Shown in pieces: positions 35,690 to 41,500 of a DNA stretch of 64,000 nt (position 1 is the stretch's first letter; every line of letters starts with the position of its first letter). The notes below the pieces were generated by a model that saw nothing but the letters and a program-made list of their open reading frames with translations, did no database searches and was not told the origin of the DNA. Source of the DNA: Lama glama (Eukaryota); NCBI GenBank assembly GCA_028534125.1, contig CM052816.1, positions 15,626,001 through 15,690,000 of the forward strand. The letters run 5' to 3'. The translations under genes and the position numbers were made by a program.

Positions 35690-36575
35690 CACTGAGGATT
35701 TATATCCTTATTCTACCCCAGGCTCTGTGTTGGGTGTCCTTTTGGATAGGTATCCAAAGACTAATAGGATGTGATCCCTGCCATTAAGGTGCTTGGTTTA
35801 ATGGGTCTAATGCAAACCCATTAGTAGCTGCGTGAAGTACAATATAGGTCTTAGCCATGACAGTAATACGTATGGGGCACATGGTAACACAGAAGAGGAA
35901 GGGACTAATTCCATATGTTTGTGTGTGGTGGTGGATCTGTAGGCAGGGAGGGATGAGGCATACTGCTGAGGTAGGAATTGGGGAGAGAATAGTTTTCCAG
36001 GTGGACAAAGCAGAGGAGAGGCTTCCTGGACACCAGAGACATTGTGTGCAGAAGCATACCAGGAAACAGCACAACGGGCTGAGGATTGCTTGGAGAGGGG
36101 CTTAGCTCCCAGAGGATGGAGCTGGCTAAGGAGAGGGAGCCCATGAAGAGCCATGCTGAAGAGTTTGGGCTTTGCTTCTGAGAGCAGCAGCATGGCCAAA
36201 TCGTATTTATATTTGAGTTTTAGAAAGATCACTCTGGCAGTCGTAGGACTGAAGAAGGGTGATGAGGTGAAAGGTGTGGAGACGAGTTAGAAGGCTTTGC
36301 AGTAGTCCAGGTGAGAGGTGAGGAGTACCTGGACCTAAGGCATTCGTGCAGAGTTGGAGAGGAAGTAGATAAATCGGGGATTTTTTAAAAGGTGGAGGCA
36401 AAGGGCATGGTGGTTGGTTGGATGAGGAAGAATAAAATGAGACAGAGGGGCTTACTGGAACAGATAAGCATGCCCAAGTATAAAATGGTGCCATAAATAA
36501 CTATCTGGAATTTGGAGTTGCGTGGGAGAAATAATACTGTTGGTTTTGAATATGTTGAGTTTGAAATGTCTCTTA
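35690..36575 (-). mobile_element. L2 fragment(s)
   Basis: TTTTAGAAAGATCACTCTGGCAG, GCAGTAGTCCAGGTGAGAG, GTTTTGAATATGTTGAGTTTGA. Confidence 0.7.
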
Positions 36576-37784
36576 GCCAGGAGGAAAGGTCCCTTCTCTC
36601 TTTGTAGAATAGCAGTCTTAGCCAAAGTCAGACATCCTTGGGCCAGTCTCCTGTGGTCTCCTCTCTATCAGGGATAAGACTCTCCAAGACCTCACTGGAA
36701 TTCCTGAGCTCCATATCCTTCAAGGACATAAGCTGGGTATTGAAAACTCCCTGGATTCTTATTGATAGAAAGAGAATGGATCCCGAACATGCTTTTTAAA
36801 GTCAGATGCTGGTTTCAGTGGAGCAAACCCTCTGCTTCTTGGAAGTGCCACAGTTTCAAAAAGAAACCATTTCCTATGGGGCAGCTCTGGCCCTGACAGG
36901 CTCTGGCTCTCAGGTTGGCTCCCAAGAAGCCCCCACCTCCTTTAGGGGGCGGCTTTTTAAAAAAGAAGATAAGGTTGTGTAGCGTGCAGCACTACCTGGT
37001 TCCGCCTTTATGCTGGAGAAAGTCCGGACGCTTGGGGACCGGACACTCTCTCAATCATCACCCCTGGCTTGGCGTCCTCAATGCCGAAGCAAGACTCCAT
37101 GTAGCCCCAACTCTTCCCAAAATGAGGAGGATGGGACCCTCCCCCACCTCAACTCAATCTCCAGCGCTCACCAGGCGGTGGCAGGGCCGAGCACGTGGGC
37201 TCGATTAGAGGCTGGCCTCTAGGGTGCAGGGAAGGGTACATACAACCCAGGAGGCCGGAAGGGGACCAGTCACCCGGCCGTGGCAATCTCCCTGGCTCCT
37301 ACAGCGGATGGCCAAAGGCAGAGGCACACCCTGTGTCCCACTCCCACTTTCATAGGACGGTGCCAGAATCCGTTATCTCTACTCCGCCCTCTGTTTACGC
37401 ACTACCCCACTGTCATGCCCATAAATCCCAAGAGCAAAGGGTAGCACCATTCTTCCCGCGTCCCTGCGGGCCCTGAGGCCGGGCACTAAAGCAGTGCAGT
37501 CCCAAGCTTCCCCTGCAGAAGCCGCGCTCCCCACTCGGTTCGGAGGTAGAGGGGGCGCGAGAGAGCAAGTGGGCGGACGTCCCATCCTCCGCATCCACCT
37601 CCAGGTCCTGGCGCGCAGGGTGGGAGCGCTGCGCGGCTCCGCGCTGCGCATCGCGGCCCGCCTGCCGCCTACCGCCTGCCCCCTGCCCTAGCTGGGCCAC
37701 CTCCCCGGGCTGCGGGTGGAGGGCTACGAGGCGCTAACGTTACGCTGTTTCCGGTTTTCCAGCGGGTTTTGCTTCCCCTCCCAA

Positions 37785-37805
37785 GGCGGCGGCGGCGGCG
37801 GCGGC
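37785..37805 (+). repeat. (GGC)7 repeat in the presumed NRG2 5' UTR
   Basis: Seven GGC units followed by GGAGCGGCGGAG, 33 nt upstream of the ATG. Confidence 0.95.
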
Positions 37806-37838
37806 GGAGCGGCGGAGCCCCCCAAATGGCCTGGCCAG

Positions 37839-37953
37839 ATGCGGCAGGTTTGCTGCTCAGCGCTGCCGCCGCCGCCACTGGAGAAGGCTCGGTGCAGCAG
37901 CTACAGCGACAGCAGCAGCAGCAGCAGCAGCGAGAGGAGCAGCAGCAGCGAGA

Positions 37954-38020
<67 letters not shown>

Positions 38021-38595
38021 GAGCAGCAGCAGCAGGAGCAGCAGCAGCAGCAACAGCAGCATCTCCCGTCCCGCTGCGCCCCCAGAGCCGCGGCGGCCGC
38101 AACAGCCGCAGCCCCGCAGCCCCGCAGCCCAGAGAGCCGCCGCCCGCTCGGGAGCCGCAGCCGCCGGCGGCATGAGGCGCGACCCGGCCCCCGGCTTCTC
38201 TATGCTGCTCTTCGGTGTGTCGCTCGCCTGCTACTCGCCTAGCCTCAAGTCGGTGCAGGACCAGGCGTACAAGGCACCGGTGGTGGTGGAGGGCAAGGTA
38301 CAGGGGCTAGCCCCGGCCAGCGGCTCCAGCTCCAACAGCACTCGCGAGCCGCCCGCCTCGGGTCGGGTGGCGCTGGTGAAGGTGTTGGACAAGTGGCCGC
38401 TCCGGAGCGGGGGACTGCAGCGCGAGCAGGTGATCAGCGTGGGCTCCTGTGCGCCGCTCGAAAGGAACCAGCGCTACATCTTTTTCCTGGAGCCCACGGA
38501 GCAGCCTTTAGTCTTTAAGACAGCCTTTGCCCCCCTCGACACCAACGGCAAAAACCTCAAGAAAGAGGTGGGCAAGATCCTGTGCACTGACTGCG
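37839..38595 (+). CDS. NRG2: Pro-neuregulin-2, first coding exon (252 codons + 1 nt, phase-1 intron follows)
   Basis: Translation MRQVCCSALPPPPLEKARCSSYSD-polySer-...GGMRRDPAPGFSMLLFGVSLACYSPSLKSVQDQAYKAPVVVEGKVQG...KKEVGKILCTDC matches the recalled NRG2 N-terminus. Similarity ends exactly at a consensus donor GCG|GTGAGT (38596). The next expected peptide (ATRPKLKKMK..., Ig domain) is not in the window. Confidence 0.97.
37911..38060 (+). repeat. Interrupted coding (AGC/CAG)n trinucleotide tract
   Basis: (AGC)7 GAGAGG (AGC)4 GAGAGG (AGC)21 GAG (AGC)4 AGG (AGC)5 AAC (AGC)2, counted directly; pure run at 37956-38018. Confidence 0.98.
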
Positions 38596-41500
38596 GTGAG
38601 TCGCCCCCTCCCTCTGCTGGAGAAGGGGGGAGGGGCGAGGTGGTGGAGACTGGGGGTGGGGCGGGAGGTGCTGCAGGTGCCCAGGCCTGGCAGCGCCCAG
38701 CCGCTGGGGGGTGGGGCCGCCCCTGGGCAGGGCGCTTGGCGCGGTGAGTGAGGGGGTTGGGGTTGGGGAGAAGCAGGATGGGGCTCAAAGTGTGCCAGGG
38801 GTGGGGGGCGGGGGGCGGACACGCTGGCCTGTGCCAGCAGGGATCTGCGGCTGATGTATGGCATGTGGCGCTGGAAAGCTGCCATCATAGCCCAGTAGCG
38901 GCAGGAAAAACGGAGAGGTCCGAGCGGTGTTGGCCCGAGGCTCAGTGAGTCAGGAGTGACCCTCGGAGGCCTTGCCCGCTCTGCTCCCACGGGCCTGCCT
39001 TGCCTAGGCTGGCAGGGTCTGCAGGAGCAGCTGGGCAGACTCCCAGGCTGTGAAGGCCTCCGCTTACAAGTTCTCCTAGGGAATGATGGCCCCCGCCCCC
39101 TCCTTCCTCTCCTGGGCTCCAGGCACAGCTCATCCACACCGCTGGCGCAGGCAGAGTTGGACTTTTTCTGCTACTGTTTTCTGTCCTCCATGTGGCTCGG
39201 ATTTTTTTTTTTTTTCTTCAGCGTGAATGCCTGTTTTTGCTAAGCTGGTAGCACAGCCCTCTCTTAACCTCCGGGACTAGTGAGCAGCCACCTCTTTTGA
39301 CTGTTTCTGGGACATCTTCCTAGGTCTGTTGATGGCGATGACGATGAAATAGAGTAACTTACTTCTGCTGAATGCTGTAAGTTCAGCTCTGACATCTTAC
39401 TGGCAGAATGTGTTGACTGCATCTCTCATCTTCATGGTGTTGGGTGCTGCACAGGAATGCAGGTGATTAGAAACAAAACACTGTAAGATCTGTGCAGCTG
39501 GGAATGGAGATTTCCCATGTCAAAAGTCAAAGAAATATTGGTTTAAGATCTTTTTCTTCTTGTCCATGAATCCAGCACTTACTTCTCAGTAAGATATTTC
39601 AAACCAAATTGTCCCCTTACTGGAGTGTTTGGTGCTGGCTTGTCTTGTGCTTATTCATATGAGGTTTCATTTTGTCCCACCTAAGGTTGAATTTGGTGCT
39701 TGCAGTGTGACTCTGAGCTGTGTAATCACTGAATTGTGATAGATGCCTTGGTCTGTCGTAGTAGTTGATGTGTTCACCAGTTTACCAACTGAATCTGGGT
39801 AGCATAAACAGGCACTGAGTAGCAAAGGATGTGTAACAGCTTGTCGGAAGTTTTGCTGCCCTCATCCTTTCTAGATCAATGCCTTTGACTTTTGGAAGCT
39901 TCCCTTCTGCTGCACATCCCCCGCTCCCTCCCCGCCCCTGTCCTTCAAGAGACAAATTTTAGTTTAGTAGTGGGAGTATATCTAGGTATTATGTTAAACT
40001 GTGATCATTTTAATCAGAAGAATCTTGCAGTGTCTTAATGAGGAGGAAAGAAACTTTGTGATAACAGCAGTTTCTCTCTCTGCCATTGTTCTGAGGAATA
40101 TTGTTGGCTGCTCTTTAATGTTGGTTTTATGCTCTGAAATGTTTTATGACAAGTTGAAACCAGTTAAGAATTTCTAATTTTTTATTCTGTAAACTGTTTT
40201 AATCTGAGATCCCTTAGGGAGCTGTGGAGCTGTATTGTGTAGTGGAAATAGATAGTAAAAACATTTACTGAACCCTGTCCAAGGACAGCTTCTGTTTTGG
40301 TTTTCGGTGAGTGGCTCCTGAGTGTGCACAGCGCACATCGCCACGTAATCCCTAGTCTGGTCCACTGAGCCCTGATGTCCCCTGTCCTCCTCTTTTTTCC
40401 CTTCCCCCATCAATTATATCTTGCTTGTTTTAGTGAGCGTTTAACAGCTTAATAGTTGAATATGGAGATCATGAAAGATTTGGGGGTCAGAAATATAGTC
40501 TGCTTTTAGGTTATAGTCATCTCATATTATTAAAGTAGCATGTGTAGTACAGTTTTCAAGAAGATAAATTTAGGACTGCAGTCACTGCTAAAGAGAAGAC
40601 CCTCACACATCACAAACTATCAGGAGGCCGGAACGTGTATGGGAGTAAACATTTTAGATTGCAAAAATTTTTCTTTGAATTGATGGTATGTAGATACAGG
40701 TCAGTTCAGGGAGGTGCTTTACATAAGAGGATTAGAAATTAAAGGACATATTTATGAGAGGAAACTTGGGGAACTGATAAGACAGAAGAACATAAACTAC
40801 ATTTTCTTACTTTCTACAATGTGGTTAAAGAAAACATGTGCTGGTAATGGTATATTAAATAAGGAAACAAATCTTCCAAACTAACCACAACACCTTCCTT
40901 GTGCTCAGCAGGAAATAACTAACAAGTTCATTTTCTGTTTTCTATCTCTAAAGAAAGCCCTCTGGGCCACAGGGTCATCGGGAACATTTTCTCCTTGGAG
41001 CAGATTTGCCCGTTGCAAAATAGGGAAACTGGCACTTGGAAACTGTCATCATGGCTGTTATATTGAGCAACTGTGTTTGAATTGTTACTTTGTTTAGGCA
41101 GTTTCAGCTTTGAGTGTGTCTAGGTTCTGAGAGGCCTGGTGCCTAGGGAGATCATCCAGGAAGCTGTGTTTTGGTGGGCCAGGTCTTTGGGGTAAATGTA
41201 CCATACAGGGGGATTTACTGTGCTTAAACACTGGCACTTGCCTTAGTAGCATCAATGCAAAGGTCATACCTGGACCCCTTCTAAAGGTCTTCATAAATGG
41301 CTGATTTTACCACAATTATGAAATGGTGACTTGAAGCCCGTGAAGTCCTCCTGGGACAGCAGTCTCTGCCAGAAGGGCATTTTATAGATCTAATGGGTAT
41401 CATTCATCCAGAATTACTATCTCTGGCGGTAAAGTGTGGAGTAAAATCTTTGCATTTCTCAGAAGATTAGGTACATGGAGGTGTTTTCTGTGCGTTCTGT

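Follow-up and report, generated by a model that had tools for sequence, protein, structure and literature searches.

The first coding exon of NRG2, the gene for pro-neuregulin-2, lies in a 64,000-nucleotide stretch of the Lama glama genome (contig CM052816.1, positions 15,626,001 to 15,690,000, forward strand; this whole stretch is called the window and all coordinates refer to it). Shortly upstream of the annotated NRG2 start, an ATG in a different frame (uATG) opens an upstream open reading frame (uORF) that overlaps the NRG2 coding sequence and reads its poly-Ser tract as poly-Gln. The geometry of this uORF, the conservation of its ATG in several placental orders and the unremarkable openness of its frame are direct observations. 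We see an even chance that it is a conserved overlapping uORF of the NRG2 mRNA leader, which would serve as a throttle and start-site selector in competition with two downstream starts. In all likelihood the uATG acts as an ordinary brake on translation and does not mark a second protein gene.

The exon-1 product was compared with protein collections; counts of NRG2 matches refer throughout to the 120 orthologues listed, all of which are placental. These matches are named pro-neuregulin-2, with E-values down to 4e-134 and 97–99% identity outside the repeat. Pfam family PF25518 (NRG2_N) covers residues 142–235 of the product with 102 bits (cut-off 27). The splice donor GTGAGT begins at 38596, directly after the end of exon 1 at 38595, and the region is a CpG island with a GC content of 0.70–0.71. 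By these similarities the gene at the locus is NRG2 exon 1, and its identity is secure. Expression of NRG2 is restricted to the brain. The protein is described as an ErbB4 ligand of central neurons in an excerpt of PMC4451617.

The uATG (frame 2) lies 13 nt 5' of the main ATG at 37839 (frame 0). The predicted product of the uATG begins with MAWPDAAGLLLSAAAAATGEGSV, continues through 55 residues of which 44 are Gln (longest run Q20) and closes with an Arg/Ala/Pro-rich tail. The stop at 38240 lies 3' of the in-frame Met codons 37839, 38172 and 38202, which makes the frame an overlapping uORF by definition. This arrangement, out of frame, 13 nt upstream and ending past all in-frame Met codons, had been described in the first-pass annotation and was borne out when the coordinates were re-checked. 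The forward strand has no other ATG in 37415–37826 and none in 37839–38172, and the uATG is the only ATG in the ~400 nt 5' of the annotated start. A farther ATG at 37415 shares the frame of the uORF and is followed after 9 codons by TAG at 37442. Record P0190 carries Trp at this position and consequently has a 388-residue frame read. The ATG at 37415 is relevant only if transcription begins that far upstream.

The uATG has C at -3 and G at +4. At 37839 both positions are C, so that neither key position is favourable, and at 38172 they are G and A, with the signal-peptide-like segment MRRDPAPGFSMLLFGVSLACYS directly after the Met. The context of the uATG is only adequate, yet better than that of the annotated start. 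The poor context formerly assigned to 37839 stands, whereas the pyrimidine (C) at -3 of the uATG itself had been overlooked.

Table 1. Features of the NRG2 leader and exon 1 in the window.
Feature	Position	Strand	Evidence or remarks
Conserved leader or promoter, GC-rich and free of ATG in all frames	37692..37825	+	ATG inventory, protein alignments
(GGC)n repeat, ends 11 nt before the uATG	37785..37815	+	period 3, 10.7 copies
Out-of-frame upstream ATG (uATG), CAAATGG	37826..37828	+	ATG inventory; M kept in Q-M-A-W-P-D-A-A-G
Overlapping upstream ORF, 138 codons + TAG, AGC tract read as CAG (Gln)	37826..38242	+	ORF scan
NRG2 exon 1 coding part, main frame	37839..38595	+	long ORF, orthologues, Pfam
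Annotated NRG2 start (MRQVCCS...), weak context CAGATGC	37839..37841	+	119/120 listed placental orthologues begin here, the remaining one contains the start
Imperfect trinucleotide tract, AGC (Ser), CAG (Gln) or GCA (Ala) by frame	37894..38061	+	168 nt, 56 copies, 84% matches
Pure (CAG)20: Q20 in the uORF frame, inside the 21-Ser run of the NRG2 frame	37958..38017	+	sequence, orthologue comparison
In-frame Met adjoining the signal-peptide-like segment, GGCATGA	38172..38174	+	ATG inventory, representative matches, non-placental models
Third in-frame Met, within the signal peptide, weak context TCTATGC	38202..38204	+	ATG inventory
uORF stop TAG, from T of synonymous CCT (Pro) and AG of AGC (Ser)	38240..38242	+	353 nt 5' of the exon 1 end
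Next stop TAA in the uORF frame	38516..38518	+	equivalent of the end of the 211-residue ORF of P0121, by matching ...ALHLFPGAHG.A.S

Most of the conspicuous properties of the uORF follow from the trinucleotide tract. All 46 Ser codons within the tract are AGC. None of AGC, CAG and GCA contains a stop, and each of the three forward frames accordingly stays open over the tract (frame 0, 37689–38745; frame 1, 37735–38173; frame 2, 37547–38240). A stop can arise in frame 2 only where a main-frame codon has T as its last base and the next codon begins with AG, AA or GA; the GC content at third codon positions (0.87) makes such pairs rare. As a null model, the synonymous codons of exon 1 were permuted while the NRG2 protein was kept. 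When all codons were permuted, 138 or more codons of the uATG frame remained free of stops in 10% of 5,000 trials (P = 0.10). This permutation was dropped as the main null since it breaks an AGC run made by slippage, not by codon choice; a null with the repeat held fixed is fairer. With the AGC tract fixed, the frame reached this length in 53% of trials, and it passed 38172 in 74% and 38202 in 54%. Since the repeat-fixed permutation reproduces them often, the length of the uORF, its polyQ content and its coverage of the in-frame Met codons require no selection. The openness of the frame and its polyQ content are an automatic consequence of a reading of (AGC)n that is set back by one base. The only non-trivial part is the uATG itself and its conservation.

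The Ser run of the window comprises 21 residues, compared with a longest run of 11 and a median of 7 in the listed orthologues. Judging from this comparison, the long pure (CAG)20 is a recent, lineage-specific expansion. The run is about twice the longest orthologue run, and (CAG)20 may be polymorphic. The third forward frame (37738–38175, frame 1) is open for 146 codons as poly-Ala and has no ATG. On the opposite strand, an ATG-initiated ORF of 90 codons (37901–38173, -) reads the tract as poly-Leu.

Conservation of the uATG was read from predicted proteins, not from DNA, and records in the uATG frame exist only where that frame was predicted. The motif MAWPDAAG is present in six of six other sources of this kind (Scotinomys, Sciurus, Oryctolagus, Tupaia, Myotis and the pair P0121/P0190). 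M-A-W-P-D-A-A-G is invariant in all six rows of the alignment, and Q-M-A-W-P-D-A-A-G in the window, P0190/P0121, Scotinomys teguina, Tupaia chinensis and Myotis lucifugus. Named records with the uATG start are KAL6092969.1 (S. teguina), ELW54041.1 (T. chinensis) and XP_023607934.1 (M. lucifugus), and the UniRef models of Sciurus vulgaris and Oryctolagus cuniculus have the same start. P0190, P0132 (Tupaia) and P0153 (Myotis) enter the Met from upstream (...SGGAPQMAWPDAAG); because they read through, they are not selected for carrying it. The context is kept in these three records, C at -3 following from the Q codon and G at +4 from the Ala codon. A grey-seal model with the main frame read upstream (…EPPKWPGQMRQV) would allow for the uATG, its K codon being ambiguous. 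In the Crocodylus and teleost records the state of the uATG is ambiguous, as codon wobble positions decide.

According to these alignments the uATG is conserved across several placental orders. Two conservation checks had been proposed with the original observation. For the start, the outcome at the protein level is positive (MAWPDAAG in 6/6 other sources, three of them unbiased by Met). For the stop it is negative. P0121 and its cluster mate P0190, which begin with or contain MAWPDAAGLLLSAAAAATGEGSVQQLQR and have a shorter Q tract than the window, both lack the equivalent of TAG 38240. P0121 continues to 211 residues, as against 138 codons here, and ends ...ALHLFPGAHGTALSL, which corresponds to the TAA at 38516 of the window; the TAG at 38240 rests on a synonymous CCT. 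The uATG frame is open past both downstream Met codons in all three sequences in which it can be traced that far (the window, P0121/P0190 and Scotinomys P0127).

Among metagenome contigs, the search for orthologous DNA returned one unrelated locus (L001, 37% identity). A 22-nt pattern from the window had a single chance match in an actinobacterial genome (L002) and none in viral contigs.

The deposited models of Scotinomys, Tupaia, Myotis lucifugus, Sciurus vulgaris and Oryctolagus jump from the uATG frame into the NRG2 frame, and the grey-seal model, named 'SKI family transcriptional corepressor 2-like', translates the NRG2 leader as protein. The models P0127, P0132, P0153, P0200, P0201 and P0118 are likely annotation artefacts of a GC-rich exon with all frames open. 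The chimeric records in the uATG frame carry no information on translation.

Overlapping uORFs repress the main ORF and preclude reinitiation at the starts they overlap. If the transcription start site lies upstream of 37826, a scanning 43S complex would meet the uATG first. With G at +4 and C at -3, part of the ribosomes would start there and the rest would leak past. Leaking ribosomes would reach the weak in-frame ATG at 37839 and produce the poly-Ser N-terminal extension; those leaking once more would reach the Met at 38172, which has a better context and directly precedes the signal peptide. Ribosomes started at the uATG would translate (AGC)n as (CAG)n, with termination at 38242 or, in other species, at the equivalent of 38516. 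Because both termination sites lie past every in-frame Met, these ribosomes would not reinitiate on NRG2. Termination well upstream of an exon junction normally triggers nonsense-mediated decay, and with 353 nt between the stop and the exon 1 junction the mRNA would be eligible for it. As the two AUGs are only 13 nt apart, the choice between 37826 and 37839 may be coupled. The net effect would be a constitutive throttle combined with a start-site selector on NRG2 output.

Several points weigh against such a throttle. The C at -3 permits substantial leaky scanning, which could make for a weak throttle. Among the proteins seen in the uATG frame none comes from a marsupial, an afrotherian or a xenarthran, and the records that start at the Met (P0121, P0127, P0200 and P0201) are biased toward carrying the uATG. 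Furthermore, the leader around the uATG is as conserved as the uATG itself, in every frame. Its conservation may thus reflect a nucleotide-level constraint on the block, not selection of a start codon. We infer the presence of the uATG in the mRNA, its use, the repression of NRG2 and the link to nonsense-mediated decay. Finally, neither 'NRG2' nor the beginning of the uORF peptide occurs in the supplements of Sandmann 2023 (PMC10032668), an analysis of 7,264 human ORFs catalogued from Ribo-seq; the negative is weak, as the gene is brain-restricted and some of the files may be truncated.

Of the two in-frame starts, the annotated one at 37839 may be secondary and the signal-peptide Met at 38172 the principal one, a point overlooked by the first-pass annotation. 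The placental leader offers three candidate starts. The first, 37826, is out of frame and has an adequate context. The second, 37839, is weak and gives the poly-Ser extension. The third, 38172, is followed by a normal signal peptide and has a purine at -3, where both 37826 and 37839 have pyrimidines. The best 11-residue Kyte-Doolittle mean of the hydrophobic segment after 38172 is 2.08. Non-placental models of Astyanax mexicanus (XP_049322442.1), Alligator (KYO39188.1) and Gekko start at a Met of the 38172 type. In 10 of 68 representative matches residue 1 is aligned to query residue 112, the signal-peptide Met. Teleost-like records have H, L or F in place of Met1, and in Crocodylus the block around the two upstream ATGs sits in another frame relative to NRG2 than it does in the window. 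In an excerpt of Vullhorst 2015 (PMC4451617) the NRG2 ectodomain comprises residues 20–313, 'based on the annotation' of Carraway 1997. An ectodomain numbered from residue 20 in that excerpt implies that residue 1 is a Met of the 38172 type.

The Met at 38172 is thus probably the ancestral NRG2 start, as far as the models compared indicate. On this basis NRG2 proper might begin at 38172, and 37826 and 37839 would be upstream starts of placental age that divert ribosomes. We hold this version tentatively, below the competition among three starts described above, which it refines and does not exclude. The annotated N-terminus is, on the other hand, well kept in placentals. All 120 listed proteins contain MRQVCCSALPPPP... 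and 119 begin with it, at MRQVCCS. Over the first 24 residues, 56 of the 120 match the window exactly and the others differ from it at 1–3 positions, and the extension up to the signal-peptide Met has 80–112 residues with conserved flanks and a variable Ser tract. In addition, 38172 would be reached only by leaky scanning past two AUGs and through ~330 nt of GC- and CAG-rich RNA. Database starts, moreover, follow annotation habits, not experiment.

Two blocks of the leader (37737–37780 and 37820–37880) are apparently kept far beyond mammals, as LRCFRFSS..CFPSQ and KWPGQMRQVCCSALP (P0126, P0136, P0137 and P0138). In frame 2 the leader reads FPVFQR.L.PLPRRRR.SGGAPQ, which also occurs in P0190 and in the records of Tupaia (P0132) and Myotis (P0153). 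Crocodylus P0126 and the teleost-like records P0137 and P0138 share the block LRCFRFSS with the main frame of the window. The teleost-like records have both blocks in the main frame, including W.G..(R/K)VC.SA.P, with H, L or F at the position of Met1. Crocodylus porosus P0126 keeps the block as PPNGLARCGRSAAQ; this reading corresponds to the third frame of the window, and in the crocodile it runs on, without a change of frame, to the signal-peptide Met. Because Crocodylus reads the block in that frame, the alignments indicate that the nucleotide block around both ATGs is ancient but that its frame relative to NRG2 is not kept. This suggests either an ancient non-coding element of the 5' untranslated region (5'UTR) or promoter, or an unrecognised, upstream-initiated extension in fish.

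The uATG could accordingly be incidental. The block would then be conserved as a core-promoter or 5'UTR element, the uATG would be absent from the mature mRNA or largely bypassed and thus without real influence on NRG2 output, and the ORF would be compositional noise. A block that sits in another frame in Crocodylus, and in the main frame of teleost-like records without Met1, is the pattern expected of a non-coding element. The equally conserved flanks, the unfavourable C at -3, the absence of an NRG2 entry from the Ribo-seq ORF supplements searched the openness of all three frames and the length of the uATG frame, expected by chance (0.53 with the repeat fixed), point the same way. The fold of 37800–37900 is no better than that of shuffled sequences (z = 0.15). 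We nevertheless regard an incidental uATG as unlikely, if only somewhat behind a main start at 38172. Mammalian leaders are generally depleted of uATGs, and conserved ones are usually used. This one has no other ATG before it for ~400 nt, and its context surpasses that of the annotated start. Several independent gene models also include the region in predicted transcripts, which is a weak argument as the models are partly ab initio.

An RNA structure favouring the uATG was considered as well and rejected: the minimum free energy of the 37800–37900 fold is -48.7 kcal/mol, compared with a shuffle mean of -49.2 kcal/mol. In this fold, which is not more stable than shuffles, the (GGC)n repeat of the leader can pair with the GCC run at ~37866–37877. 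Depending on the frame, the (GGC)n repeat encodes poly-Gly (main frame), poly-Arg (uORF frame) or poly-Ala (third frame). An Rfam scan of 36500–39500 found no family.

The predicted uORF peptide has 45 Gln, 22 Ala and 17 Arg among its 138 residues and a net charge of +7 (+11 for the last 60 residues). Its N-terminal hydrophobic stretch reaches a best 11-residue Kyte-Doolittle mean of 1.91, compared with 2.08 for the NRG2 signal segment. The N-terminus has no basic n-region and carries Asp5. For the alternative-frame peptides Pfam gave nothing at cut-off, only sub-threshold low-complexity matches, and the literature search found no paper with the peptide string. The Q tract varies between sources from ~35 to 55 residues. 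Among the features that a dual-coding exon should display, namely conserved boundaries and purifying selection of its own, the start is kept; the stop and the tract length are not.

PolyQ disease proteins aggregate at roughly 35–40 Q. The longest run in the 55-residue tract is Q20, and the tract is interrupted by R and E; the peptide is therefore not a polyQ protein of the disease type. The first-pass annotation had noted that long polyQ peptides are prone to aggregate and had suggested that the exon may be dual-coding and yield a polyQ microprotein, which is unlikely. The Q20 run is lineage-specific and below the threshold, 138 residues exceed the usual limit of ≤100 for a microprotein, and dual coding is called into question by the variable stop and Q tract together with an openness expected by chance (0.53). 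Because the stop is not conserved, the tract is variable and Q20 is recent and shorter than disease lengths, the Gln-rich peptide is most likely a by-product whose length drifts with the repeat.

That exon 1 is truly dual-coding, with a functional Gln-rich protein (mildly hydrophobic N-terminus, Q tract, Arg-rich C-terminus) under its own selection, is very improbable: the uORF is long (138–211 residues), the window, P0121, P0153, P0200 and P0201 agree fully in its start and first 23 residues, and the aligned part of its last 60 residues shows 92% identity to P0121, but overlap with the conserved NRG2 frame would by itself give identity in the uORF frame, the stop differs (138 vs 211 residues), the Q tract varies between sources with a lineage-specific Q20 run, the composition is of low complexity and without a Pfam family at cut-off, the openness of the frame is not unusual, and the peptide string is absent from the literature searched and from the PMC10032668 supplement files. 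We are just as doubtful of a second AUG-initiated, Gln-rich neuronal protein that would be made from the NRG2 mRNA with a polyQ length set by the unstable poly-Ser repeat. If it were made, NRG2 would be a natural out-of-frame polyQ locus in which further expansion could be toxic via the hidden frame. Such growth of the repeat could also make the throttle on NRG2/ErbB4 signalling tighter or looser. The polyQ side of the locus is of consequence only where the peptide is produced and accumulates.

The significance of the overlapping uORF as a throttle lies in the amount of pro-NRG2, which is biologically relevant. If the first AUG of the mRNA is out of frame and conserved, NRG2 output would be set partly by the choice among three AUGs, and the annotated N-terminus with its poly-Ser 'propeptide' may not be the main form. 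A native control element would then be missing from expression constructs that begin with the annotated ATG or with the signal-peptide Met. Annotation is affected as well: the deposited models of at least five species (rabbit, squirrel, Scotinomys, Myotis and Tupaia) are chimeric, starting or running in the wrong frame. Beyond the exon, G-rich tandem repeats (periods 26, 6 and 7) occupy 38618–38670 and 38753–38818 at the start of intron 1, just past the donor.

The type of element is already known, as an overlapping uORF and, more loosely, as an alternative-frame ORF over a CAG-type repeat; the NRG2 case has no earlier description in the literature searched. Of the studies listed for NRG2 together with uORFs, all concern uORFs in general, several of them in yeast or Drosophila, and none is on neuregulin-2; under the full names of gene and element no paper was found. 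Overlapping uORFs (also uoORF, oORF or ouORF) have an out-of-frame AUG 5' of the main start and a stop 3' of it, as in NRG2. The expected repression is likewise the same, by ribosome capture without reinitiation, and termination before exon junctions should favour nonsense-mediated decay. Work on the subject includes PMC13405301 and PMC9943669. The uORF of NRG2 differs from the usual ones in that it is unusually long (138–211 codons), covers three candidate in-frame starts instead of one and consists mostly of a trinucleotide repeat.

Initiation coupling of the type found in turnip yellow mosaic virus (TYMV) takes place at closely spaced AUGs. Excerpts of PMC4770231 treat 43S sliding and the competition between such AUGs. 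NRG2 resembles these cases in having two AUGs 13 nt apart, in different frames and in sub-optimal contexts, and the choice between them may be coupled here too.

Alt-ATXN1 is an out-of-frame ORF in the coding sequence of ataxin-1. It starts inside the coding sequence, is not known to read the repeat as polyQ and is reported to have been detected as a protein. Like the NRG2 uORF, it belongs to a neuronal gene with a CAG-type repeat, whose coding sequence it overlaps in a second frame. Unlike Alt-ATXN1, the NRG2 uORF starts upstream, reads the poly-Ser tract as polyQ and is a frame predicted from the DNA. A pure run of 20 is in the normal range for CAG-type repeats of disease genes. Repeat-associated non-AUG translation and frameshifting, which the available excerpts describe for CAG repeats such as those of HTT and ATXN2, yield products in several frames, and the NRG2 tract would similarly give Gln, Ser and Ala from one repeat. 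In contrast to products of the HTT/ATXN2 type, as these excerpts present them, the Gln frame of NRG2 has its own conserved AUG and needs neither expansion nor a non-AUG start.

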